Below are positions 4,400 to 56,980 of a stretch of DNA of 64,000 nucleotides, piece by piece. A program made the position numbers and the translations under genes. Under the pieces are notes generated by a model. The model made no database searches. It saw nothing but the letters and a program-made list of their open reading frames with translations, and was not told the origin of the DNA. Each line of letters begins with the position of its first letter. Position 1 is the stretch's first letter. Location of the stretch: assembly GCF_004010195.1 (NCBI RefSeq), contig NC_057717.1, forward strand, positions 96,930,896-96,994,895, written 5' to 3'. The DNA is from Chiloscyllium plagiosum. Its lineage: Eukaryota.

Positions 4400-6131
4400 A
4401 ACTGAAGAAGATGACATTGAGAAAGCGAACGTACTGCTTGCAGATACTGACACTTATCAACACGTGGCGATACACCACAATTAGAGAACCGGATCACAGC
4501 CCTACTCAAAAACCTTCAGATATCTGGAGAATTAAACATGACAGATTTCCAAACAAATGAAATCAGACAGATCCAATGCACCACGCTTCTACGGATTACC
4601 CATAATTCCCAAAACCTGAACTCTCCCCCGCCAGATCCATAGTCTCGCTACCCAGAACACCACCGCACAGATTGTTCAAGAAGCTACACCAAAGACTAAA
4701 ACACTTAGTAGAAGACACACTCCACTCCATTGACTCCACCCAAGAATTCCTGAAGACCGTCAAAGACACCAAGGTAGGAGAGGATGAAATAACGATCTCC
4801 TTTGACGTAACAGCCCTGTTCACATCCATCAATATCAACCTGGCCAAGGAAACACTGACTACACTATTAGAAGAACCAAAGACACATACAGCAAACACCA
4901 CCAACTTCATCAGCAAGGACAACATCGTCATGCTGGTGGACCTATGTCTTACCACCCAGTCCACTTTCAATTACATAACCTACAGACAAACCAATGGAAC
5001 ACCTGTGGGATCTCTGACAGCAGGGTTCTTAGCAGAGGCAGTCATGCAAAGACTCGAACAAACAGCTGTACCAACCATCCAACCCAAACTTTGGGTCTGC
5101 TATGTGAATGACACCTTTGTCATCACTAAACGAAACAATTACAAGAAACCTTCAGGACCATCAATAATATCCTTACTGGCATAAAATTCACTAAAGAAGA
5201 GGAAAACAACAACAAACTGCCATTCCTAGCTGTCTTAGTAGAGCAAACAGCCAATGGGGAACTTCAAACCAGTGTCTACAGGAAAACAACATATACGGAC
5301 CAAATATTGAACTATAGAAGCAATCATCCCAACAAACACAAACGAAGCTGCATTAGAATATTATTTCAATGAGCCACCACACACCGCAATGCAGAGGAAC
5401 TACGCAGAGCAGAGGAAAATCACTTATACAACGTATTCAAAAAGAATGGGTACCCAATGAACACAGTCCGCCGATTTCTCAGCAACAAACCCAAACAAGC
5501 AGACAAAACACATCCAGAAACCTTAGCCACTCTCCCCTACATCAAAGGCATTTTGGAAATGACTGCCAGACTACTCAGACCTCTTGGTGTCATGGTAGCC
5601 CACAAACCCTCCAACACTAAAACAGCAGCTAATGAACTTGAAAGACCCTATATAGCCAACAAGCAAAACTAATGTCATTTACAAAATACCTTGCAAGAAC
5701 TGTAACAAACACTACTTTGGACAAACTACCAGAAAACTAGCCACCAGGATACATGAACATCAATTAGCCACAAAACGACATGACCCTCTCTCACTAGTAT
5801 CCTTACATACAGATGAGGAAGGACACCATTTCGACTGGGACAACACATCCATTCTAGGACAAGCCAATCAGAGACACGCACAAGAATTCCTAGAAGCATG
5901 GCATTCCAATCGAAACTGTATCAACAACTCATCGACTTGGACCCCATTTACCACCCTCTGAGAAAAGGAACAGGAAATGACATCACCAACCCAAGGAAAC
6001 CTGAACACATAAAGAGAAAATGGGTTACTAACACCAGCGCTTCCCCGGAGACTCGCTGATGATGTTACCTCATATGGTGTCGAAACGTTTGAAAAATGAA
6101 CCTTCCAGCTCAGCGAGCAAACTTACATCCA
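4400..6131 (+). mobile_element. Penelope-like retroelement (family C): 5'-truncated, frameshifted RT plus GIY-YIG endonuclease, 3' hammerhead
   Basis: RT motifs SFDVTALFT, QTNGTPVGS, YVNDTF (ORF 4672-5184). VIYKIPCKNCNKHYFGQT..LATRIHEH at about 5670-5760. Core CTGATGA-TGTTACC..GGTGTC-GAAA-CGTT at 6056-6089. Confidence 0.92.
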
Positions 6132-15968: not shown

Positions 15969-17117
15969 TAGAGTCATAGAGATGTACAGCATGGAAACAG
16001 ACCCTTCAGTTCAACCCATCCATGCCGACCAGATATCCCAACCCAATCTAGTCCCACCTGCCAGCACCCGGCCCATATTCCTCCAAGCCCTTCCTATTCA
16101 GATACCCATCCAAATGCCTCTTAAATGTTGTAATTGTACCAGCCTCCACCACATCTTCTGGCAGCTCATTCCATACACGTACCACCCTCTGCATGAAAAA
16201 GTTGCCCCTTAGGTCTCTTTTATATCTTTCACCTCTCACCCTAAACCTATGCCCTCTAGTTCTGGACTCCCCCACCCCAGGGAAAAGACTTTGTCCATTT
16301 ATCCTATCCATGCCCCTNNNNNNNNNNNNNNNNNNNNNNNNNNNNNNNNNNNNNNNNNNNNNNNNNNNNNNNNNNNNNNNNNNNNNNNNNNNNNNNNNNN
16401 NNNNNNNNNNNNNNNNNNNNNNNNNNNNNNNNNNNNNNNNNNNNNNNNNNNNNNNNNNNNNNNNNNNNNNNNNNNNNNNNNNNNNNNNNNNNNNNNNNNN
16501 NNNNNNNNNNNNNNNNNNNNNNNNNNNNNNNNNNNNNNNNNNNNNNNNNNNNNNNNNNNNNNNNNNNNNNNNNNNNNNNNNNNNNNNNNNNNNNNTTTGG
16601 TGTCATCTGCAAACTTACTAACTGTACCTCTTATGCTCGCATCCAAATCATTTATGTAAATGACAAAAAGTAGAGGACCCAGCACCGATCCTTGTGGCAC
16701 TCCACTGGTCACAGGCCTCCAGTCTGAAAAACAACCCTCCACCACCACCCTCTGTCTTTTACCATTGAGCCAGTTCTGTACCCAAGTGGCTAATTCTTCC
16801 TGTATTCCATGAGATCTAACCTTGCTAAACAGTCTCCCATGGGGAACCTTGTCAAACGCCTTACTGAAGTCATATAGATAACATCTACTGCTCTGTCCTC
16901 ATCAATCTTCTTTGTTACTTCTTCAAAACACTCAATCAAGTTTGTGAGACATGATTTCCCACGCACAAAGCCATGTTGACTATCCCGAATCAGTCCTTGC
17001 CTTTCCAAATACATGTACATCCTGTCCCTCAGGATTCCCTCCAACAACTGGCCCACCATAGAGGTCAGGCTCACCGGTCTATAGTTCCCTGGCTTGTCTT
17101 TACCGTCCTTCTTAAAC
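15969..17117 (-). mobile_element. CR1 LINE RT fragment containing an assembly gap; splits a family D palindrome
   Basis: [45 protein letters not shown]-run at 16318-16595. Family D arms at 15884-15968 and 17118-17215. Confidence 0.92.
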
Positions 17118-18442: not shown

Positions 18443-18581
18443 TACTTGCATCAAAAATTGGTTTTTTAGAGGGTGTCTCATTCCATCCAAGGTTGCAACG
18501 CTGGTCATCCATTCGGTTCCTTTGAACATGACTCACCATGTTGAAGAACCCTTCATTTTCTGCCTCGTTGGGATCGGTTTC
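18443..18581 (-). CDS. PCP2: PCP2 exon with first GoLoco motif
   Basis: cctcgacag|GAAACC...AGTA|gtaagt, 139 nt, phase 0 to 1. Encodes ETDPNEAENEGFFNMVSHVQRNRMDDQRCNLG..., matching PCP2 EGFFNLLSHVQG.RME.QRC. PCP2 is also near XAB2 in mammals. Confidence 0.92.
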
Positions 18582-23947: not shown

Positions 23948-25194
23948 GGATGTGTTGGTGATTATTTTCCAGAGTTCGATAGATTCGGGATCAGTTCCTG
24001 CGGATTGGAGGGTGGCTAATGTTGTACCACTTTTTAAGAAAGGTGGGAGAGAGAAAGCAGGAAATTATAGACCAGTTAGTCTGACCTCAGTGGTGGGAAA
24101 GATGCTGGAGTCTATTATAAAGGAAGAAATTACTGCACATCTGGATAGTAGTAACAGGATAGGACAGAGTCAGCATGGATTTATAAAGGGGAAATCATGC
24201 TTGACTAATCTTCTGGAATATTTTGAGGATGTAACTNNNNNNNNNNNNNNNNNNNNNNNNNNNNNNNNNNNNNNNNNNNNNNNNNNNNNNNNNNNNNNNN
24301 NNNNNNNNNNNNNNNNNNNNNNNNNNNNNNNNNNNNNNNNNNNNNNNNNNNNNNNNNNNNNNNNNNNNNNNNNNNNNNNNNNNNNNNNNNNNNNNNNNNN
24401 NNNNNNNNNNNNNNNNNNNNNNNNNNNNNNNNNNNNNNNNNNNNNNNNNNNNNNNNNNNNNNNNNNNNNNNNNNNNNNNNNNNNNNNNNNNNNNNNNNNN
24501 NNNNNNNNNNNNNNNNNNNNNNNNNNNNNNNNNNNNNNNNNNNNNNNNNNNNNNNNNNNNNNNNNNNNNNNNNNNNNNNNNNNNNNNNNNNNNNNNNNNN
24601 NNNNNNNNNNNNNNNNNNNNNNNNNNNNNNNNNNNNNNNNNNNNNNNNNNNNNNNNNNNNNNNNNNNNNNNNNNNNNNNNNNNNNNNNNNNNNNNNNNNN
24701 NNNNNNNNNNNNNNNNNNNNNNNNNNNNNNNNNNNNNNNNNNNNNNNNNNNNNNNNNNNNNNNNNNNNNNNNNNAGCGACTTGGCTTGTATACCCTTGAG
24801 TTTAGAAGGCTGAGAAGGGATCTGATTATTAAAGGATTGGACACTCTGGAGGCAGGAAACATGTTTCCTCTGATGGGTGAGTGCCGAACCAGAGGACACA
24901 GCTTATAAATAGGGGGTAGACCATTTAGGACAGAGATGAGGAGAAACTTCTTCACCCAGAGAGTGGTGGCTGTGTGGAATGCTCTGCCCCAGAGGGCAGT
25001 GGAGGCCCAGTCTCTGGATTCATTTAAGAAAGAGTTGGATAGAGCTCTCAAGGATAGTGGATCTCAAGGGTTATGGAGATAAGGCAGGAACAGAATACTG
25101 ATTAAGGATGATCAGGCATGATCATATTGAATGGTGGTGCAGGCTCAAAGGGCAGAATGGCCTACTCCTGCACCTATTGTCTATTGTCTATTGT
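23948..25194 (+). mobile_element. Young CR1 LINE of the same subfamily, inserted into an HE1 SINE; contains an assembly gap
   Basis: VPADWRVANVVPLFKKG..NYRPVSLTSVVGKMLE..QHGFIKGKSCLTNL. N-run at 24237-24774. (ctattgt)n tail, then the SINE tail resumes. Confidence 0.93.
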
Positions 25195-43660: not shown

Positions 43661-45303
43661 GGCAGACAGAATTTGCTGACCTTTTCTGAGGCCTGACTTT
43701 TAAAGCAGACCTTCCTCATGTTGTAATCTGCCCAAATTTCCTCCTCTCTGAATCACAGACCCCTTCAGGACTAGTTTCCCTGGGCGTTTGACTGGCTTAG
43801 GACTACTCCATTCCTTAGCCGACACAGCCTCCAAAGTCTCACCCTATCGTGGTGTAATCATGAAAAGGAACTCTACATTGCAAAGTTGGAAACTGCCGTC
43901 TGTCACGGAGTATGTTCTAAGCTCAGAGGTTTCTGTCATAATAAATTGTCAAAAGAAAAATAGGTCATTACATTTCATTGAAAAGTGATGCATTTAGCAA
44001 TCGCATTTGTGAGCAGTAGCAATATTTAAAGCTGTAATGACTAATTCATGAACCAAATAACAAGGGAATTAAAGGCTCAACTCCGCTGTGTGCCCGGAGA
44101 CTCTAGAATTGAAGTCGATGATAATAATGAATCCATTCCGCCATCTGGAAAGGCAATTATTGCAAAGTGCTCTTTGAAACATGACATGGTTAGTTAACAG
44201 AGGATTTCCTGCTTAAAGGGAGCAGAAGGTCATTGAGCTCTTTAATGTTCATTCATAAAATGATTGAAATAACCCAAATTACAGTTGCCCTGTCATAATA
44301 CCTCGATAAATCTAACGGCATTATTTGAAGAGCTGGTGGGAAGGCCTCTCTTTCGGTCTCTCCAGTGTCCTGGCTGATATTCATCCCACCATCCACATCA
44401 CAAAGACGGATAAGGCGGCTATTATTGCAACGGTGTTTGCCAGCCCATTGCGTTCCCTACATTCCAGAGACCAGCTACACTTCATAAAGTACCCTGTCAA
44501 GATTGTTGGCTCGTCCAGAGATGGTGGAAGGCACTATCTAAATGCAAACCCTTCCAACAAGCTGGCTCGAGGCAATCCTCAGTGGGGTTCTCCTAACTCC
44601 GCTGCCTTTCATTCCCATGACGGGGAGTCATCCTGGTTCTTTGAAGTACAGTGCCTAATTGAAGCCAAAATTATCAGCACTCTTCATGCCTTGAATTCAC
44701 ATCCCCAAGAGGCAGAGCTGGTTTGAGGCTGTCCAGACATATTTCACTTGGGACTTTAACAACCAAAGACTACCCTTCATTATAATTACAGAAGAGTAAG
44801 TGCAAACTATTAATGTACAGTTACATTTTGACTTGCTAATTATAACCATGGTTTATTCATTAAGCATCATTAAGAATGATTTTCAAAGGTATTTTTCTTT
44901 TGCCTTGTATACAGCTCTGACAAAATCATATCTTGCATTGGCATTCCCATTAAATTCCATCCCTTCCTTTCCCAGGCACAAAAACTAAGATTCTCGACCA
45001 CCCCACCTTCCCGAGGGATATGCCCCTTAGAATGAGGGTTGCTTCTTAAACCCCAACATTGGGAAGATGCCTTGTCCACTCTCAGTAGATATAGGAAGCC
45101 TCAGTCAGAAAGTTAGAGGTCTACTCCCGAGTCCCAAAGCACTGAATCAAGACACACATTGACAAATAAAGAGATTCATTTAATTCAGTTCAAAAACTTG
45201 CCACGGTAGGATCTGAAGTCTGGGATTGCTAGTCCATTACTGAAACAAAACAACCATATTCACAGTGCGAGCCTTCAGTAAACCCTCTCCTTCACTACAA
45301 CGT

Positions 45304-45708
45304 TCAGCTTAGTGTGGTGAATAGCAGCAGCGCCAGTGCAAGGCAGGGGAGGACCTGCCGCGGATCCCACTGCCGATTGGACAAGTTGCTCCCGAAGACT
45401 ACCTTGTGCGGTCGCTGCTTTTTCCACTTGCGTCTCCGTTCCCACTTCCCCGCCGATTCCCGCCTGGAGTTGCGGTTGACGGAGTGCCTGATTTTCTTGC
45501 AGGACAGGGTGGGCTTAGGGGGCATTTGGACGGGAAGGAACGGCTTCCCCGCCAGGAGGGTGCGGGTTTCCACCCAGTCCAGGTAGTGGGCGTACCTGGT
45601 GAACAGGGCGGTGTAGTTGCACCACTGTTTGCAGAAGCTTGCAGCTCCGGCTATGATCCAAACCTTCGTGCGCTTGTCCTGGCATTCGAGTGGGGCTCCG
45701 TAACCTCC
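45304..45708 (-). CDS. Trypsin-fold pseudoprotease (PRSS54/55-like) exon 5, terminal
   Basis: tttctacttag|GGA GGT TAC GGA GCC CCA gives GGYGAPLECQDKRTKVWIIAGAASF..LFTRYAHYLDWVETRTLLAGKPF.., a basic stalk, then VLPCLALALLLFTTLS*. ATTAAA at 45184-45179. Confidence 0.9.
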   Translation of the reverse strand, partial: GGYGAPLECQDKRTKVWIIAGAASFCKQWCNYTALFTRYAHYLDWVETRTLLAGKPFLPVQMPPKPTLSCKKIRHSVNRNSRRESAGKWERRRKWKKQRPHKVVFGSNLSNRQWDPRQVLPCLALALLLFTTLS

Positions 45709-46269
45709 CTAAGTAGAAAGAAAAACTGGAACCAATATCACTGCAATTACTTGGAGCGTTCATAGTCATAGAGCCAAGTGATAGCCTCAGCAGTAGCTCT
45801 TTAAGTCTGTGTTTTAGTTCAGACAGTGCACATTTCTTGACTATCTGAGCCCCTGCTTGGACAATACCATATTGGCGGCCCCATTAATGTCAGCGGCTTG
45901 GCTGACTGCAACCATTTAGTTGTTGCCTTTCTCAATGACAGTGAAAACCATTCCAGCACTGACCTTCACGAGTGTGACTCAGCAGATAACCATCAATACC
46001 CCATGGCTGTGGGCATCTGCTGTAGGAGTCTACACTGACAAGAAATTCAAATCGGGGGGGGGTGGGGGTGGGAGTACAAATTACGTTCCATTCTTTCTCA
46101 ACATCTATCCTCGAGAACGTATGAAACCTCATGAATCTTCTTTGATTATCTCTGAAATCAGGACAGAGAGACAATATCCGTAGGTCATTTCCTTCAGAAG
46201 ATCCAAGATTAAGGAATAGTCTATATGGCCAATGAAAGGAATGGATTAAATGACTTTAAAAACAAAACT

Positions 46270-47070
46270 AGAGTCGTACGGCACAGAAACAGACCCTTCG
46301 GCCCAACTCGTCCATGCCGAGCGGTTTTCCTAAATTAGACTAGTCTTGTCTGCCTACATTTGGCCTTCTAAAATTTTCTTACCATGTACCTGTCCAGGCG
46401 GCTTTGAACGTTGTAATTGTACCATCCTCCACCACTTCCTCTGGTAGTTAATTCCATACTCTGGGAGAAAACGTTGCCCCTCAGGTCCCTTTTAAATCTT
46501 TTCCCTCTCACTTTAAACCTATGACCTCTAGTTCTGGACTCCCCCACACCAGGGGAAAAGCTATTTAAGCTGCCCCTCATGATTTTATAAAATTCTATTC
46601 TATGAAATAAAGGTCATCCCTCAACCTCTGGACTCTCCAGTGAAAACAGCCCAGCCTATTCAGCCTCTCCCTATCGCTCAAACCCTTCAGTTTTTGTAAG
46701 GATTTTTATGCAGCCTTTCCAGTTTAACAACATCCTTCCTATAGCAGGGAGAACAGAATTGTCCACAGTGCTTCAGAAATGGCCTGGCCAATGTCTCGTA
46801 CAGGTGTAATATGGCACCCCAACTCCTAAATTCAATGCTTTGACTAAGGCAGACTCCCCTTCACTGCTATGTCTACCTGTGAAGGAACTATGTACCTGCA
46901 CCCAGAGACCCCTCTGTTCGACAACGTTAGGGCCCTGGGGAGTGTTAAGTGTATAAATTGTGCCCTGGTTTGCCTTACCAAAATGTAACACCTCGCACTC
47001 ATCTAAATTAAACTCCATCCTCCACTCCTCAGCCTACAGGCCCAGTTGATCAAAATCCTGATGTATTCTT
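46270..47070 (-). mobile_element. Degenerate CR1 3' fragment
   Basis: MEFNLDECEVLHFG..; GESRTRGHRFKVRG. Confidence 0.82.
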
Positions 47071-47624
47071 CTAATAACCTCAATGTTCTAGACCAACAAG
47101 TTCCCTTTAATCCAACATTTCTTGGTCTGGGCCATGGTGACAGAAGGGGTACTGCAACCAGCCTCAGTACTCTGCAATCAGAGGAGAATCAAAACTAGTA
47201 TGGGGACTCCTGAGGGTTTTTCTCTGCAAGAAGCACACAATTGGTTTCAGCTGCCTCCAAAATTGCTCCAAACTCAATTTCTCTAATTGAGAAATCCACC
47301 TGCCTAGATTCAGAGATGAAAAAGTGTCACTTGGATAAGTTTCTGCCGGTTTACTGAGAACTGTAGCAATCATATTGAGAAAGGAGGAACAAACAATAGG
47401 AGAAGCAAGCCATTTGTTCCTTCAAGCCTGCTCTGTCATTCAGTAAGATCTTGTTCTTAGATACATCATCCCACATTATCTCCACATCCCTTTATATCCC
47501 CAAATATCTAGTAAGCTCTCACTTGAATACTCCATGTTTGGGTATCCAGAGACCTTTGGGATAGAGAATTTAAGATTCTTAACCCATTGTGTGAAGATAT
47601 TTTACCTCCGGTCATGGAGAGGAG

Positions 47625-48780
47625 ATTCGAAATCCTTGAAGGTGGAGTCGCAGGTAGAGTAGTGAAGATGGCGTTTGGTACGTTGGCCTTTATTAGTCAG
47701 TGCATTGAGTTGGGAGGCCATGTTAGGGCTGCACAGGACTGTGTGTGCAATTCTTGTCTCCCTCCTATTGGAAGGATGTTATGAAACGTGAATGGGTTCA
47801 GAAAAGATTTACAAGGATGTTGCCCGGGTTGGAGGGTTTGAGCTACAGGGAGAGGCTGAATAAGCTGGGGCTATTTTCCCTGGAGTGTTGGAGACTGAGA
47901 GGTGATCTTATAGAGGTTTATAAAATCATGAGGGGCTTGGATAGAGTGAATAACCGGAGGTCTTTTCCCTAGGATATGGGAGTCCAAATCTAGACGGCAT
48001 AGGTTTAAGGCGAGAGGGGAACATTTAAAAGGTACCTAAGGGACAACTTTTTCATGCAGAGGGTGGTGCATGTATGGAATAAACTGCTAGAGGAAGTGGT
48101 TGAGGCTGGTACAATTATAACATTTAAAAGGCATCAAATGGGTATATGAATAGGAAGGGCTTAGAGGTGCGCCCACACCTCCTCCCTCACCTCTATCCAA
48201 GGCCCTAAAGGAGCCTTCCACATACAAAGTTTCACTTGCATATCCACTAAGATCATTTATTGCATCCGTTACTCCCGATGCGGTCTCCTCTACATTGGGG
48301 AGACTGGGCGCCTCCTAGCAGAGCGCTTTAGGGAACATCTCCGGGACACCCGGACCAATCAACCACACTGCCCTGTGGCCCAACATTTCAACTCCCCCTC
48401 CCACTCTGCCGAGGACATGGAGATCCTGATCTCCTTTTCCACCTATCCACTCCACCCTCTCCTCCCTGACCTATCACCTTCATCCCCTCTCCCACTCACC
48501 CATTGTACTCTATGCTACTTTCTCCCCACCCCCACCTTCCTCTAGGTTATCTCTCCACGCTTTAGGCTCACTGCCTTTATTCCTGATGAAGGGCTTTTGT
48601 CCGAAACGTCGATTTCGCTGCTCCTTGGATGCTGCCTGAACTGCTGTGCTCTTCCAGCACCACTAATCCAGAAGTTAGAGGGATATGGGCCAAGTGCTGG
48701 CAAATGGGACAAGATTAATTTTGGACAGCTGGTTGATGTGGACAAATTGGACCAAAGGCTCTGTTTCTGTGCTGTACACT
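47625..48780 (+). mobile_element. CR1 3' fragment with a nested Penelope family A piece (about 48168-48674)
   Basis: VQKRFTRMLPGLEGLSYRERL. The nested part has IIYCIRYSRCGLLYIGETGR and the core CTGATGA-AGGGC-TTTT-GTCC-GAAA-CGTC at 48583-48610. ttagagg is duplicated at its ends. Confidence 0.85.
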
Positions 48781-49775
48781 AATGATTTTCTCTCAGAATA
48801 AGGGTTTGACTGTAAGCCTGAGGCAGTGTCCTGTTGTTCTACATTCTACAGCTGGGATAGGGGAAAACATATTTCCAGGATCTCAGAGTCACACTTATAA
48901 TCAAGGAAGCCAATTTGAGATCAGAATAAGTTTTTCTTGATAGAGTAGATAAGGGAGAAATTGTTCCTAATCATAAACATGGCAGCACAGTGGTTAGCAC
49001 TGCTGCCTCACAGCGCCAGAGACCCAGGTTCGATTCCCGCCTCGGGCAACTGTCTATGTGGAGTTTGCACATTCTCCCCATGTCCGTGTGGGTTTCCTCT
49101 GGGTGCTCCGGTTTCCTCCCACAGGCTAAAATGTGCAGGTCAGGTGAATTAGCTATGCTGAATTGCCCGGAGTGTTAGGTGAAGGAGTAAAATGTAGGGG
49201 AACGGGTCTGGGTGGGTTGCTCTTCGGAGGGTCGGTGTGGACTTGTTGGGCTGAAGGACCTGTTTCCATAATAACTAATCTAATCTAATCATAAAAGGGG
49301 TCAAGAACAAGAGGTTACAACTTTAGGGTAATGTGCAAAACCCTGTCTCATGATTAGAAAATAGAGGGAGATTCAATTGACCCCTTCAAGAAGGCATTTG
49401 ATAGCAATATCAAATGGAACCAATGTGCAAGGTTATTGATAGGGGAAGGAGATTAGCAGTAATTCACAATGCTCATGTGGAGAGCAGGGACCACCTCCTG
49501 TACCAGCACAGTTCTGTGATTCTATGGGGCATTGGTTTAGTTCAGTTGGCTGGGTTGTTTCTTGAAGCAAAGTAATACCAAGAGCGTGGGTTCCATTCCC
49601 GCACCGGCTGAAGTTACCAGTGGAAGGACTCAACCTTTCCTGTTGCCGGAGGTTGCAGTGGGCCTCAGGTTAAACCACCACCCAATCGTCTCTCTGGAAT
49701 GAGAGCGCAGCCCTTTAGTGACCCGTCACCTGTAGCTCACTTGACAGAAGACACAGCACTGTAAACAAGTTTTAC

Positions 49776-49924
49776 CATACACAAAGACTGCTTCTTGTCC
49801 CAGTTCGTCACGCAAATCAGATTTTTCCTCAGGTTCTGCGGGTAGAACTTCTCACAGGTTGCAAGTGTCTGATGTCCGACATTCTGCTTCACCATGTGGT
49901 AGATCGGAGGCATGGGACCTTGAG
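49776..49924 (-). CDS. Pseudoprotease exon 4
   Basis: tgtgcaaag|CT CAA...TGT ATG|gtaaaa, 149 nt, phase 1 to 0. Encodes (A)QGPMLPIYHMVKQNVGHQTLATCEKFYPQNLRKNLICVTNWDKKQSLCM. Confidence 0.88.
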
Positions 49925-50305
49925 CTTTGCACAGAAAGCAAACATGGTTAAAACCTTAGGAAAACCAGCTCCATTTCAGGCTGAGCCTAACTCAGCAAAA
50001 CTGCTGAGTTTAAGCACACAAGGACAAAAATTGGAATGTCGTACGAGATTTATTCTTCAGTACTTTCCAAACCACCTGTTCAGGGGTGCTATTGCACATC
50101 TCTGGAGCAGGCAAGACCTTACCTCTAGACCAGGGGATCCAGGTTAAGGACACTACCACTGCGAAACAAGCACCTCAAAAGCAAAAGGTTCTCAGATATG
50201 CACTGAAGGCAAGCCCATAAGCTGATTTGGATTGTCCCATTGCCTTTGTACTCTTCCCATTTTGTAACTATTTCTTCAGTAATTATCAGACATCATCTTG
50301 AGGCA

Positions 50306-53300
50306 GAAAGTGAGGACAGCAGATGCTGGAGATCAGAGCTGAAAATGTGTTGCTGGAAAAGCGCAGCAGGTCAGGCAGCATCCAAGGAGCAGGAGAATCG
50401 ACGTTTTGGGCATGAGCCCTTCTTCAGGAATGAGGAAAGTGTGCCCAGCAGGTAGGGGCGTTGGAAATGCAATAGGTGGAAGGAGGCCGGAGTGGGGGTG
50501 GGGGTGGAGGCCGAGAGGTCAGGAAGAAGATTGCAGGTTAGGAAGGCGGTGCTGAGTTCGGATTTGACTGAGACATGGTGGGGCGGGGGGGGAAAGAGGG
50601 GAAATGAGGAAACTGGAGAAATCCGAGTTCATCCCTTGTAGTTGGAGGGTTCCTAGGCAGACGATGAGGCGCTCTTCCTCCAACCGTCGTGTTGCTATGG
50701 TCTAGCAATGGAGGAGTCCAAGGACCTGCATGTCCTTGATGGAGTTGGAGGGGGAGTTGAAGTGTTGAGCCACGGGGCGGTTGGGTTGGTTGGTCCGGGT
50801 GTCCCAGAGGTGTTCGCTGAAACGTTCCGCAAGTAGGCGGTCTGTCTCCCCACTATAGAGGGGGCCATATCGGGTACAGCAAATGATGTGTGTGGAGGTG
50901 CAGGTGAATGTGTGGTGGATATGGAAGGATCCCCTGGGGCCTTGGAGGGAAATGAGGGGGGAGCTGTGGGCGCAAGTTTTGCATTTCTTGCGGTCGCAGG
51001 GGAACGAGCCGGGAGTTGAGGGTGTGGACCTGATGAGGGAGTCACGGAGGGAGTGGTCTTTTCAGAACGCTAATCGGGGAGAGGAGGGAAATATATCCCT
51101 GGTGGTGGGTTCCGTTTGGAGGTGGTGGAAATGATGACGGATGATACGATGTATATGGACGTTTGTCGGGTGGTAGGTGAGGACCAGTGGGGTTCTGTCC
51201 TGGTGGCGATTGGAGGGGCGGGGCTCAAGGACAGAGGAGCGGGAAGTGGAGGAGATGCGGTGGAGGGCATCGTCAATCATGTCTGGGGGGAAATTGCGGT
51301 CTTTGAAGAATCAAACCGGCAGACAAGGCTCGCGGACACCTCCTCCTACTGCCCCCTTGACCATGACCCCACCTCCCACCACCAAACCATCATCTTCCAG
51401 ACCATCCATAACCTCATCACCTCAGGAGATCGCCCATCCACCGCCTCCAATCTCAGTCCCACAACCCCGCACCGCCCGTGTCTACCTCCTGCCCAAAATC
51501 CACAAACCTGACTGCCCCAGCCGACCCATTGTCTCAGCCTGCTCCTGCCCCACCGAACTCATCTCTGCATACCTTGTCCTGTCCCCCTTAGTCCAAGAAC
51601 TCCCTAGGATTTGCGCTTCACCGGCCCCCAATGCCTTATCTTCACCATGGACATCTAGTCCCTGTACACCTCCATCCCCCATCACGAAGGACTCAAAGCC
51701 CTCCGCTTCTTCCTTTCCCGCCGTACCAACCAGTACCCTCCCACTGACACCCTCCTTCGACTGACTGAACTGGTCCTCACCCTGAACAACTTCTCTTTCC
51801 AATCCTCCCACTTCCTCCAAACCAAAGGAGTAGCCATGGGCACCTGCATGGGCCCCAGCTATGCCTGCCTCTTCTTAGGATATGTGGAACAGTCCATCTT
51901 CCGCAGCTACACTGGCACCACCCCCCATCTTTTCCTCCGCTACATCGATGACTGTATCGGTATTGCCTCGTGCTCCCACGAGGAGGTTGAACAGTTCACC
52001 CAACACTCTACCAACACCTTCCACCCCGACCTCAAATTCACCTGGACTGTCTCAGACTCCTCCCTCCCCTTCCCAGACCTTTCCAATTCTAATCTCGGAC
52101 GACCGAATCAACATGGACATTTACTATAAACCGACCGACTCCCACAGCTACCTAGACTACACCTCCTCCCACCCTCACCCTGTAAAAACGCCATCCCATA
52201 TTCCCAATTCCTTCATCTCCGCCGCATCTGCTCCCAGGAGGACCAGTTCCAATACCATACAACCCAGATGGACTCCTTCTTCAAAGACCGCAATTTCCCC
52301 CCAGACGTGATCGACGATGCCCTCCACCGCATCTCCTCCACTTCCTGCTCCTCCGTCCTTGAGCCCCACCCCTCCAATCACCACCAGGACAGAACCCCAC
52401 TGGTCCTCACCTACCACCCGACAAACGTCCATATACATCGTATCATCCGTCGTCATTTCCGCCAACTCCAAACGGACCCGACCACCAGGGATATATTTCC
52501 CTCCCCTCCCCTATCAGTGTTCCGAAAAGACCACTCTCTCCGTGACTCTGTCAGGTCCACACCCCCCACCAACCCAACCTCCACTCCAGGGACCTTCCCC
52601 TGCAACTGCAAGAAATGCAAAACTTGGGCCCACACCTCCCCCCTTACTTCCCTCCAAAGCCCCAAGGGATCCTTCCATATCCGCCACAAATTCTCCTGCA
52701 CATCCACACACATCATTTACTGCATCCGCTGCACCCGATGTGGCCTCCTCTATATTGGGAAGACAGACCGTCTACTTGTGGAACATTTCAGAGAACACCT
52801 CTGCGACACCTGGACCAACCAACCCAACCACCCCGTGGCTCAACACTTCAACTCCCCCTCCCACTCCACCAAGGACATGCAGGTCCTTGGACTCCTCCAT
52901 CACCAGACCATAGCAACACGACGGTTGGAGGAAGAGCGCCTCATCTTCCGCCTAGGAACCCTCCAACCACAGAGATAAACTTGGATTTCTCCAGTTTCCT
53001 CATTTTCCCTCCCCCCACCATGTCTCAGTCAAATCCCTCGAACTCCGAACCGCCTTCCTAACCTGCAATCTTCTTCCTGACCTCTCGGCCTCCACCCCGG
53101 CCTATCACCCTCACCTTGACTTCCTTCCACCTATCGCATTTCCAACTCCCCTCCCCCAAGTCCCTCCTCCCTACCTTTTATCTTAGCCTGCTGGACACAC
53201 TTTCCTCATTCCTGAAGAAGGGCTCATGCCAGAAACATTGATTCTCCCGCTCCTTGGATGTTGCCTGACCTGCTGCGCTTTTCCAGCAACACATTTTCAG
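50306..53300 (+). mobile_element. Penelope-like retroelement (family A), 3 kb: inverted 3' copy, RT, GIY-YIG, terminal repeat; in intron 3 of the pseudoprotease
   Basis: YLLPKIHKP..RPIVS, GVAMGTCMGPSYA, LRYIDD, IYCIRCTRCGLLYIGKT. 50306-51310 is the reverse complement of about 52280-53300. 14-bp TSD atcatcttgaggca (50292-50305, 53301-53314). Confidence 0.95.
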
Positions 53301-54198
53301 ATCATCTTGAGGCATAATTGATACATCAATGTATAAGGCATTGCCTACAGCACCAGGAACTTCAGTTTAGAAAGGAAGTCAGTGGGATAATGAAATCAAA
53401 AATAATGACTTAAAAAACCAAACATCCATTGGGAGTGTGGGCTGTGTACCGGTGGCAACCCAGAAGGTACATTCCCAGTCCAACACTGAGGCAGTGCAGT
53501 ACTGTCAGAGATGCCATCTTTTGGCAAACTAAGGCCCAATCCATCTGGTGCAGTAGGTGCTAAAACATCAAAATAACCAGGTTTGGTATTCCAGATGGAC
53601 ATTTTTCCCCAAGGACCATAGGTAGTTGAAAGGTGAGCTTATAGAAATTTAAAAATAGTGAGGGGTATAGATAGAGTTGAGGGTAGTTGCCTTTTCCCTA
53701 GGATGGGGGATTTCAAGACTAGGGGCACATTTTTAATGATGACGGGAGAGATTTAAAAAAAAGACAGGAGGGGCATTTAAAAAAAATACAGAGATCAGTT
53801 TGTACATGGAATAAACTTCCTAAGTGGTTGATGTGGGTAGAACTACAGTAGTGGATAAGTACATGAACAGGAAAGGTTGGGAGGGATATGGGCCAGATGG
53901 GACTAGTTTAGTTTGGGATTATGGTCGGCATGGACTGGTTGGACCAAAAGGGTCTGCTTCCGTGCTGCATGACTATGACTCTAGCACGTCAAACTCTCCG
54001 GCAGCATCCCACTCCCTAGATAGGATATAGCCCAGAAGGTATTAGAGAGAGAGATGTTCTGCCCAGGCAGGAAGGGGAAATGTGAGATAGGGACACACCA
54101 ATATTTCCTGCAAAAACCACCACTGGCCTAGGGTGCCAGTCATCAGTGTGTCTATAAGGGAAACAAACATAGACATCTTTGAAAAACAAGTTAATTAC

Positions 54199-54479
54199 CT
54201 ACACTTTTCAGTTGCCATCCAGTAACCCAGCAATTTTCTAGTGTATCCATGTCAAGGTGCCGATCATCTGGGAAACAGATTGGGGACACCAGGTTGTTGA
54301 AAATAAATGGCTCTCGCACCAGAACAAGGGCGATATCATGGTCTGGAATTTTAACCCCAAACAGATCGTACGCAAAATATTTGTGCAAAATGATTTTGTG
54401 GACGTTATAAATGATTTGCACGTCGTCTTGCTGAAGGGTCCCAGCAATGATGACCAGGTTCGGATAGAGTTCACTGGAG
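54199..54479 (-). CDS. Pseudoprotease exon 3 (Asp102 motif)
   Basis: catccaacag|C...GTA G|gtaatt, 281 nt, phase 2 to 1. Contains HKIILH..DHDIALV..LVSPICFP..LENCWVTGW. Confidence 0.93.
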
Positions 54480-55696
54480 CTGTTGGATGATTTGAAAAGC
54501 AGGAATGAAATCAGGTGTCAGTATATAAAAAAAACTGAATTAAAAATGAACAAACTGTAGGTACTGGAAACCGAAAATAAAGTATAACCTGCTAGAAACT
54601 TGCAGCAAGGGAATTCAATAATTTTGGACCAACACATTTTTACTCCCTATATCCCTGTCCACTTAACTCTCTACAATTTGGGAAGATTTGACCTCTTCTC
54701 TTTTAAATGTCTGTACATTACTCCTTAGGTGTTCTTACCGTCTAGCACTTAAATCTTTTTTTAAAAAAAATTCAATTGCCTCTGACAAAAAGTAGTTTAC
54801 ACTCTTGGCTTTTTGTCTTTACCTGCTTCAATAGTTTTCAAAAGGGACTGTGACTTTTCTCTGAACACAGATCAAATAAAAGGTACACCAAACATTAACT
54901 TCAGATAAAAGGTTAGTTTAATGCACTTTCAGCGTTTTCCCTTTTTAGGGGTTTTAAATGTCCAAAAGTAACCCAATTGTGGTTCCCAAACAGCATATTG
55001 GTGTCTCATAGAATCCCTACAAGTGTGGAAGCTGGCCATTCAGCCCATCAGGTTCATACTGACCCTCCCTCTCAAGAGCATTCCCACCCAAACCACAATT
55101 CTCTAACCCTGCATTTCCCATGGCTAACCTCTCCAACCCTCACCCCTAGTCTGCACACTGTGGGCAATTTAGCATGGACTATCCACCCAACCTGTACATC
55201 TTTGGACTGTGGGAGGAAACCCACGCTGACAGAGCACGCATATTCAACGGTCACCCAGAGTCTGGAATCGAACCCAGGTCCCTGGCGCTGTGCAGCAGCA
55301 GTGCTAACCACTGATCCATTGTGCTGCCCACAAGTACCCTTGTACATATTCTCAATCTTGCAAGGTGCTGGACATGTGGTTTTATCTTGGTTCTTAGCTT
55401 AACAATCAGCTCTTCAAGCATCAAGAAAACAATACTATCTTTCAAAAATTACTTCCCAATTAATTTGTGAAGAGGCATCCTTGAGAGACTATGCCTGCTG
55501 CTTAAGTTTCTTGTCAAGACTACACAACTACTGCAGAGCAGAAATATAATCTCCCAGCTGAACTATCCCCTTTGGAAGGCCATCGTACAATTAGAAATCA
55601 GTCCCTTTCGCTTGGGGAAGCTTAACTCAGGACTGCCGTCACTCAGTGCCCAGCAGGCGAGAACGATGAAATTGCATGAGAGAGAGAGATACTTAC

Positions 55697-55862
55697 AACA
55701 TGAAAACACAATGTGCTGTTGTCAAAACCCACCATCTGTTCAGAATAATACCACCACACAAATACCTCCAGTTAAACTGCAATTGGACTTGCCATGGGAA
55801 CTCTCCAGGGCGTATCTCTCTGGCAAAGTTGTTTTTATATTTTATGCTTGGCACACCACACC
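55697..55862 (-). CDS. Pseudoprotease exon 2 (His57 motif)
   Basis: ttttacag|GG TGT...ATG TT|gtaagt, 166 nt, phase 1 to 2. Encodes [54 protein letters not shown]. Confidence 0.93.
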
Positions 55863-56916
55863 CTGTAAAATAAATTACAACGGATTTGTAGATTCAAGGC
55901 CTGTGGCATCAGACCTTGCTTCCCAGTAGCTCGTTCAGGCACTCCCGTGCCAAAACATTTGCAACTGCCACATCAGAATTACGATGCACTGTATTTAGTC
56001 TTGCATCTAACTAATTGTGCTGGTTTAAGGTTCCATTAGCACTGGTTTGATTCCAGCCTTGGGACAACTGTGCGCACACTCTCCCAGTGTCTGTGTGGGT
56101 TTCCAATTTCCTCCCTCAGTCCAACGATATGCAGGTTACGTCAATAAGCCGTAGTAAATTGCCCATAGTGTCCAGGGATGTGCAGACTAGGTGGGCTAGC
56201 CATGGGAAATGCAGGAATAGAGGAGGAGGATGGGTCAGTGTAGACTCATTGTGCTGAATGGCCTGTTTCCACACTGTAGGAATTCTATAGATAGATACAC
56301 TGGCATTGGGAGAAGGCTGATCCCAGGTTTGGAGAAGTTTCCTCATGAGGGAAGGTTGACCAGGTTGGGCTTGTACTCCTTGGATTTTAGGGAGAATGAG
56401 TGGTGGCCTTACTGATACATACAAGAGTCTTAGAAGACTTGACAGGGCAAATGATGAAAGGTTGCTTCCTTTGTGACAGTCTAGGACCAGAAGACAAATC
56501 TCAGAGTAAGGAGTTGCCTACTTGAGGCAAAAATAGAGAACAACTTCTTTCCTGAGGAATGCGATTTGGTGAAATACTTTATTGCAGAGGGCATTTGAGA
56601 CGGCGTAATTAAATATGCCCAATGCAGAGACAGATAGATTTCTCAAAGGGTCCAAATAGTCTATTATGCCTTCTGGGTTTGGTATTTTTGCTCGGTTCCT
56701 GCTCAAAAAGGGACAGATGCTGCGTGTCTCCTGATTCTAAATGACAGATGTGATGTGAAGGGATATTTAATTGCATTTTGTGGCAAAAGGAATAGAATAC
56801 GGAGGTACAACATAGAGAACAAAAGTTCATGCTGGACAACAGCCCCACTGTGCTAAACTCTGCCCCACATACACACATTCTAAATATTAACTGAAGTGAT
56901 GAGAAACCATACTTAC

Positions 56917-56980
56917 CAGGGTAACACCAACCTCCTAACAGATTCCAAACAAATATACAAATATAAACTAATTTCATCAT
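56917..56980 (-). CDS. Pseudoprotease exon 1 (signal peptide)
   Basis: MMKLVYICIFVWNLLGGWCYP G|gtaagt, phase 1. Preceded by a likely 78-nt 5'-UTR intron (gtaagc at 57062, tttttag at 56985). Confidence 0.85.

Follow-up and report, generated by a model that had tools for sequence, protein, structure and literature searches.

Mammalian sperm carry S1 pseudoproteases, PRSS37 and PRSS54, that matter for fertility and whose origin has been traced only within tetrapods. PRSS55 is described as a glycosylphosphatidylinositol (GPI)-anchored S1A protein of the testis (PMC6208766) that keeps its catalytic triad, and PRSS37 as a sperm pseudoprotease that helps the transport of ADAM3 (PMC9114714). PRSSLY, which is Y-linked in eutherians, has been reported to lie in the mammalian X-homologous region and to have arisen in the tetrapod ancestor (Hughes et al., 2022, PMC9178871). 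In HGF, the pseudo-triad consists of Gln534, Asp578 and Tyr673 (PMC11399343), and the exchange Y673A strongly impairs MET binding (PMC8249616). Here we describe a pseudoprotease gene of the shark Chiloscyllium plagiosum, located in a window of 64,000 nucleotides (the whole stretch of DNA that was analysed; assembly GCF_004010195.1, contig NC_057717.1, positions 96,930,896 to 96,994,895 of the forward strand). The gene encodes a single S1A domain with tyrosine in place of the catalytic serine, and this dead site appears to be conserved more tightly than the live sites of equally diverged active proteases.

The gene lies on the minus strand and consists of five exons that splice to 1065 nt, with GT-AG boundaries at 4/4 introns, phases of 1-2-1-0 and a single, terminal stop codon closing a reading frame of 354 aa, as the first-pass annotation, made from the letters of this DNA, had predicted. 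In chymotrypsin numbering, used here by convention with the register set by alignment with plasma kallikrein and elastase, the S1A triad is incomplete: His and Asp are present, and Ser195 is replaced by Tyr. The catalytic loop runs Cys191-Met-Gly193 and then Gly194 and Tyr195 (Gly222 and Tyr223 of the protein), position 189 is Ser and position 216 is Cys; the replacement of GDSGGP by GGYGAP with His and Asp kept, noticed in the first-pass annotation, is confirmed. The Ile16-Asp194 activation switch is absent as well, with NNFA aligning at the position of IVGG and Gly standing at 194, which bears out the remark that no R-IVGG activation site exists; the residue before NNFA is Lys in the C. plagiosum protein and Glu in the whale shark and catshark. 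The activation switch of S1A proteases depends on Ile16 and Asp194. Because Ser195, Asp194 and Ile16 have been lost together, normal proteolysis is ruled out by established S1A chemistry, and we consider it very probable, judging from these residues, that the protein carries out no proteolysis at all.

Sequence searches found orthologue models in ten elasmobranch species. Where the first-pass annotation had allowed for orthologues with an intact GDSGGP, the models that cover the catalytic loop in frame read CMGGYGAP instead in 7/7 species (two bamboo/epaulette sharks, the whale shark, two catsharks and two skates), and TTAHC, which contains His57, is also present in the models P0001, P0006, P0007 and P0009. 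Domain identity to the C. plagiosum protein is 233/240 for the epaulette shark, 222/240 for the whale shark, 198/240 for the catshark, and 128/182 and 127/182 for the skates. Selection was judged by protein-level proxies, namely identity, invariant runs and a neutral simulation. The longest run that is invariant in the whale shark, the catshark and two skates spans aa 216-235, 20 residues that surround the dead nucleophile; over the domain that all of them share, 108/182 residues are invariant (permutation p = 0.0011). For comparison, pairs at 64-76% identity were drawn from 50 active S1 proteases and compared over the same span; the 42 pairs, which share sequences and are not independent, scored 13-19 of 20, and 0/42 reached 20. 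By this comparison, the dead site is held tighter than the live sites of equally diverged active proteases, which points to a specific, findable ligand.

In the neutral simulation, which applied random substitutions only to the coding sequence of one lineage, 3/600 runs to 75% identity and 2/600 runs to 62% identity stayed free of stop codons, and all cysteines were kept in 9/600 (75%) and 3/600 (62%). In the comparison with two lamniform sharks, exons 3-4 of the protease are 86-92% identical and the neighbouring PCP2 exons 76-84%. Because 20 residues at the dead site are invariant from sharks to skates, we prefer a selected pseudoenzyme to a decaying gene, and from the protein-level evidence there is little doubt that the gene is functional and under selection. 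The claim of a functional pseudoenzyme is supported by the dead site in 7/7 species, the invariant 20-mer and the scarcity of stop-free neutral runs.

The predicted fold is an ordinary one. The epaulette orthologue P0006 matches the Pfam Trypsin family (E = 8e-32), and the structural models of the catshark and epaulette orthologues (mean pLDDT 80 and 77) are confident in the domain and the AGxPF extension, low in the stalk, and include a terminal helix. Residues 24-274 of the catshark model superpose on residues 1-245 of chymotrypsinogen A with Z 29.7 and rmsd 2.4 over 232 aligned positions (Foldseek, VIA-align). The ten cysteines of the five canonical disulfides are present, together with Cys246, Cys290 and two cysteines in the terminal signals; in these models, the protein is an S1A member that retains the chymotrypsinogen fold and the five canonical pairs. 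Cys246 and Cys290 are absent from the catalytically intact relatives. The signal peptide has a hydrophobic core with a Kyte-Doolittle (KD) value of 2.7 over 9 aa. The C-terminal tail reaches KD 2.86 over 11 aa, has 0 charged residues in its last 14 and is preceded by a polar spacer; such a hydrophobic tail occurs in 12/12 group proteins examined and an omega-like site in 11/12. These features make a GPI anchor likely, and the first-pass idea that the hydrophobic tail is a probable membrane anchor gains support from the signal peptide and the GPI-like tail, both conserved in orthologues.

Relatives were collected by alignment and profile searches, and 77 domains were cut from 49 of 234 proteins. 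The best non-elasmobranch match was a lungfish protein (40%, E = 7e-49), and a mole PRSS52-like protein matched with E = 2.5e-23. PRSS54, PRSS55 and PRSS51 were absent from 62 of the 6480 candidates of the alignment search, which were mostly PRSS27/33/44 and testisin, and no true PRSS54 or PRSS55 sequence was among the matches listed in any relative search. The profile search was crowded by multi-domain proteins. Its best 150 of 47,342 matches contributed one more lungfish protein together with coelacanth and axolotl proteins, all of which have an Arg-Ile site and His/Asp/Ser; they also included a second dead paralogue from chondrichthyans, as well as PRSSLY-type sequences from newt, axolotl, caecilians, lizards and echidna. 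Both a quick tree of the 77 domains and a more careful one of 49 rows (from which 28 domains, mostly redundant outgroup repeats, were left out) group these relatives with the clade formed by the C. plagiosum protein and its orthologues. In the 49-row tree, a branch with 98/95 support parts 31 rows (the orthologue clade, the dead paralogue, the intact proteins, the PRSSLY domains and the mole PRSS52-like protein) from 18 ordinary proteases, and the inner order of the 31 rows is weak (81/59, 86/73). With the PRSSLY-type rows removed and extra outgroups added, a 36-row tree gave a ten-row core clade at 100/98, composed of the orthologue clade, the intact lungfish, coelacanth and axolotl proteases and the second dead chondrichthyan paralogue. 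Approximately unbiased (AU) tests rejected 0/3 arrangements (orthologue clade with intact clade, p = 0.314; orthologue clade with mole, p = 0.276; core with mole, p = 0.406).

The grouping of the core clade with PRSSLY is supported by a common indel in the Cys220 loop, in which the segment ahead of Cys220 is longer by one residue and the segment behind it shorter by three. The indel occurs in 19/49 pattern-matched domains, all of them core or PRSSLY, and in 0 of the other 30, the mole PRSS52-like protein included; the pattern left 28 of the 77 domains unmatched. Domain identities to the C. plagiosum protein count against a clean split, the mole (85/215) being as high as the lungfish (89/222). 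In the ESM Atlas, the cluster ‘Inactive serine protease 54’ ranked 1 for the catshark protein, where two generic S1 clusters had an equal score of 0.97, and 3 for the axolotl relative, also tied at 0.97 with generic clusters. The likeness to PRSS54 proposed in the first-pass annotation thus keeps its rank-1 cluster and loses force through the tie; PRSS54 presumably has the same Cys220-loop indel and spacing. The proposed link to PRSS52/55 has weakened, since the mole protein lies inside the group in one tree (98/95), lacks the Cys220 indel and falls outside in another; on these alignments we regard this link as unstable.

Four intact proteins of the core clade, lungfish XP_043916183.1 and XP_043927059.1, coelacanth XP_014345810.1 and axolotl XP_069462987.1, are uncharacterised S1A proteases that share the Cys220-loop indel and the W..T..G.P[FL] extension with the C. 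plagiosum protein. Its QD[KR][KR]T[KQ].W loop also occurs in the lungfish and coelacanth, and its hydrophobic tail in the lungfish and axolotl. The intact proteins differ in keeping the Arg-Ile site, His/Asp/Ser and Asp194, in lacking Cys216/Cys290 and in having a stalk that is not basic, and they offer a before-and-after pair for the loss of catalysis. The second chondrichthyan paralogue (catshark XP_038642875.1, elephant shark XP_007909718.2) likewise belongs to the core clade, carries the indel and a hydrophobic tail, is dead and lacks IVGG; it is about 35% identical to the C. plagiosum domain. Its catalysis was dismantled by a different route, since His57 has become Gln or Arg and position 195 is Ala. 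This paralogue was seen in catsharks (P0135, P0169, P0171) and the elephant shark (P0138/P0172), under the RefSeq names CTRL-1-like or chymotrypsinogen-like.

The protease-like domains of PRSSLY/PRSSL group with the orthologue clade (98/95 for the 31 rows, 81/59 for the inner grouping) and share the indel and the C-terminal extension, without Ser195. PRSSLY differs in being huge and multi-domain, with up to three dead domains and His57 lost, whereas the C. plagiosum protein has a single domain; entries of this type in newt, axolotl, echidna and lizard (P0039/P0177, P0043, P0144, P0100, P0088, P0092) contain up to three dead domains with no His57 or Ser195 where aligned. Direct orthology to PRSSLY was rejected, because the shark gene is single-domain and lies beside PCP2/XAB2. 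RefSeq names were also rejected as a guide to orthology: the coelacanth protein called ‘inactive serine protease 54-like’ has all three of His, Asp and Ser. That coelacanth protein (P0089/P0168) has Arg-Ile, His, Asp, GDSGS and a long acidic repeat tail. Mammalian PRSS54 has a single dead S1A domain like the C. plagiosum protein, with other substitutions at positions 57 and 195 and a different neighbourhood. PRSS55 differs in keeping its triad, and the mole PRSS52-like protein has W..T..G.PY as in the shark and differs by an ordinary Cys220 loop.

HGF was not among the homology matches, and the comparison with it is a functional analogy only. In its beta-chain, a Tyr at the nucleophile position of the trypsin fold serves receptor binding, and the shark protein has Tyr at the same position. 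HGF differs in keeping Asp672, in needing cleavage and N-terminal insertion, in having Gln at 57 and in being a soluble kringle protein. A 22-residue query around the dead site matched 0 solved structures, so that the comparison rests on papers.

Based on these comparisons, we suggest, as somewhat the better supported view, that the gene encodes a GPI-tethered binding pseudoprotease, most likely located on male germ cells or sperm. The protein would enter the secretory pathway and be anchored through its basic stalk, and the domain, which with its nucleophile and activation switch lost cannot form an oxyanion hole, would stay uncleaved and zymogen-like. A partner may be bound through the remodelled active-site face, formed by Tyr195, the invariant stretch c188-c207 and Cys216, with the HGF beta-chain as a model; by this analogy, the use of the remodelled cleft as a binding surface is fairly likely. 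Cys216 and Cys290 may pair and tie the stalk across the rim of the cleft, and the basic stalk may permit shedding or the binding of polyanions. Male germ cells or sperm would be the most likely setting, with a role as chaperone or adhesion scaffold like that of mammalian PRSS37/PRSS54, and for this setting, argued from the relatives, the balance is only slightly favorable.

A broader account, which we consider speculative and rather unlikely as a whole, would be that an S1A subfamily of gnathostome age repeatedly yielded germ-cell pseudoproteases and that its elasmobranch member is an HGF-like receptor-binding sperm module. Cartilaginous fishes would have two of these pseudoproteases, tetrapods the PRSSLY domains and probably also PRSS54, and the subfamily would still be enzymatic in the lungfish, coelacanth and salamander. 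Tyr195 would be a contact residue, the stalk a disulfide-tethered cover of the cleft rim with a sheddable basic linker, and the module would act on a conserved partner in sperm storage or sperm-egg contact. The gene suggests that the domain family to which Y-linked PRSSLY belongs dates back to the origin of jawed vertebrates; if the subfamily account is true, the Y-linked PRSSLY domain of mammals is rooted deeper than the tetrapod ancestor. We do not see a new kind of system here, and the reproductive account is offered as a hypothesis. What our analysis adds to the first-pass annotation is that the Tyr195 site is invariant, that the protein has two extra cysteines and a stalk of basic character, that some of its sister proteins are intact, and that it is tied to the PRSSLY domains.

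Several points weigh against the tethered, sperm-related pseudoprotease. PRSS54-knockout mice were fertile in one study (PMC7013879), and were subfertile with acrosome defects in another according to a review (PMC13184221). Outside eutherians, homologues of PRSSLY are also expressed in somatic tissues and in females (PMC9178871). The link to the mammalian testis rests on PRSSLY, automatic names and the tied Atlas match, and the 36-row tree shifts the mole PRSS52-like protein, placed inside the group by the 49-row tree, to a position beside PRSS44 (90/92). In favour of the sperm setting, by contrast, all lineages in which the core clade was seen are among those described as retaining an acrosome (chondrichthyans, sarcopterygians and tetrapods; PMC13762310), with the absence from teleosts not searched exhaustively. 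The structure searches tie active forms and do not tell the zymogen from the active conformation. The GPI call follows a simple sequence rule (signal peptide, omega site, spacer and terminal hydrophobic stretch), and the catshark tail is short and contains Lys. The models of 3/10 species (C. punctatum, white shark and basking shark) miss the dead site in frame, those of the white shark (P0010) and basking shark (P0237) lacking exons 1, 2 and 5, and the skate models begin in exon 3, so that His57 is outside their span.

The alternative that survives best, a real but minor possibility, is a dead and anchored protein unrelated to sperm, serving as a somatic surface ligand, co-receptor or protease-inhibitor decoy (in epithelium, brain or the oviducal gland). 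The somatic expression of non-eutherian PRSSLY homologues in both sexes and the unstable PRSS52/55 link would suit it, as would the 70% shark-skate identity of the domain with its invariant site, presumably conservative for a sperm-surface protein; but the characterised relatives near the group are all testis-specific or mostly testis-highest, and members were seen only in acrosome-bearing lineages.

We find it improbable that the protein is secreted or luminal, either because the tail is not a GPI signal or because the stalk is cut at basic sites to give a soluble product (seminal fluid, acrosomal matrix). In its favour, the stalks of six/six elasmobranch sequences counted hold 16-19 Lys/Arg with di- and tribasic sites, whereas the two lungfish proteins have 4 and 8; in the C. 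plagiosum protein, the 77 residues after AGKPF contain 18 Lys/Arg versus 3 Asp/Glu. The short, Lys-containing catshark tail also speaks for a soluble product. Against it, the hydrophobic tail and S-N-x-S-N are kept from sharks to skates, and the lungfish, chimaera and mole relatives end alike. The soluble form is partly compatible with the tethered pseudoprotease, as a cut downstream of the Cys246-Cys290 bond, if formed, would release it. Predicting the domain and the stalk as a complex gave a score of only 0.02, and we draw on it in neither direction.

A still-active enzyme of unusual mechanism, in which Tyr195 serves as the nucleophile or a cofactor brings about activation, seems very unlikely. 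His57 and Asp102 are kept and the catalytic loop is invariant, but with Asp194 and Ile16 both lost the S1A switch cannot work, the pseudo-triad of HGF has the same Tyr, and Cys at 216 narrows the entrance of S1. The least credible alternative is a non-functional remnant that has yet to gain a stop codon, since, although several species have incomplete or fused RefSeq models, the open frame and all cysteines are kept from sharks to skates, only 2-3 of 600 simulations stay stop-free and conservation is at least that of PCP2, on which grounds the pseudogene reading was rejected, as was that of a gene model artefact.

Table 1. Positions of the exons, sites and signals of the pseudoprotease gene in the window (position 1 is its first letter).
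Feature	Position	Strand	Remark
Coding part of exon 1, with the start codon and the signal peptide (aa 1-21)	56917..56980	-	64 nt, GTAAGT donor
Exon 2: Cys1 pro-segment, degenerate activation region, Cys42-Cys58, His57	55697..55862	-	166 nt
NNFA in place of the IVGG new N-terminus; without Ile16/Val17	55822..55833	-	alignment with active relatives
His72 = chymotrypsin His57, kept (TTAHC)	55711..55713	-	
Exon 3: Asp102 region, Cys122, Cys136 (CWVTGW)	54199..54479	-	281 nt
Asp125 = chymotrypsin Asp102, kept (DIAL)	54335..54337	-	
Exon 4: Cys168-Cys182, Ser189, Cys191, Met192; opening 5 residues of the invariant 20-mer	49776..49924	-	149 nt
Coding part of exon 5, with the dead catalytic loop, the C-terminal end of the protease domain, the stalk of basic residues, the GPI-like signal and the stop codon	45304..45708	-	405 nt
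Last 15 residues of the invariant 20-mer (aa 216-235)	45664..45708	-	longest invariant run
Gly222-Tyr223: Asp194 to Gly, Ser195 to Tyr	45700..45705	-	alignment; identical in 7/7 species covering the site
Extra Cys246 at chymotrypsin 216, S1 pocket rim	45631..45633	-	invariant in orthologue alignment A6
Additional stalk cysteine, Cys290, a possible partner of Cys246	45499..45501	-	invariant in orthologue alignment A6; pairing inferred
Polybasic stalk, aa 291-322, with di- and tribasic sites	45403..45498	-	residue counts
Candidate GPI omega region, Gly326-Asn331	45376..45393	-	small-residue cluster, S-N-x-S-N invariant in A6
C-terminal hydrophobic tail, aa 339-354, no cytoplasmic residues beyond	45307..45354	-	modelled as helix
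ATTAAA polyadenylation-type signal about 120 nt past the stop, then a TG-rich tract	45179..45184	-	inferred

The gene is already represented in RefSeq by partial models, and our full model (Table 1) corrects them. RefSeq XP_043550789.1 of C. plagiosum (201 aa) is identical to residues 154-354 and is without exons 1-2 and most of exon 3; the five-exon model is more complete. Its exon 1 is backed by the catshark model P0007 (isoform X1), in which 11/20 aligned N-terminal residues are identical. The partial orthologue models are named ‘serine protease 52-like’ or ‘inactive serine protease 54-like’, the latter being used for the skates. The model of C. punctatum skips exon 4 and changes frame. No paper on this shark gene was among those listed in literature searches, two of which (the first 40 of 690 and 15 of 5,531 papers) were dominated by unrelated work on sharks, lungfish or evolution; PMC7401375, PMC12318234 and PMC11979771 contributed nothing on this gene, and the supplement of PMC12318234 gave no match.

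Exon 4 has an additional in-frame AG six bases inward (49919-49924, minus strand), and the orthologues take the upstream acceptor. On the same strand, 64000-63935 matches 16/22 of the N-terminus of the epaulette shark RefSeq model P0006, where it replaces the signal exon; this alternative N-terminus is probably an artefact of the model.

Downstream of the gene, and also on the minus strand, lie GoLoco exons of the PCP2 type (18581-18450 and 12655-12512) and exons of XAB2/SYF1 (1925-1710 and 718-566; Pfam HAT_Syf1_CNRKL1_N). We take the mammalian gene order to be XAB2-PET100-PCP2-STXBP2. The first-pass annotation had placed the gene where mammals have STXBP2 beside PCP2; the PCP2 half of this claim stands, and for STXBP2/Sec1 a Pfam scan of 147 of at least 258 open stretches outside the gene gave no match. 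A candidate first coding exon of PCP2 was noted at 34114-33974 (minus strand, 141 nt, from ATG to a GTAAGT donor, phase 0), and this open stretch is phase-compatible with the GoLoco exon at 18581. In the lamniform models P0010 and P0237, protease exons 3-4 (phase 0) are joined directly to the first PCP2 GoLoco exon (phase 0), which may represent a read-through transcript, a lineage-specific breakage or a model artefact.

Assembly gaps (N runs) occupy 16318-16595 and 24237-24774 of the window. Intron 3 contains an inverted pair of retroelement fragments of about 1 kb (50336-51310 and 52277-53303) that are 84% alike and, judging from their motifs, presumably Penelope-like. A further retroelement, with broken reverse-transcriptase and endonuclease-like frames, lies at 4606-5958 on the plus strand.

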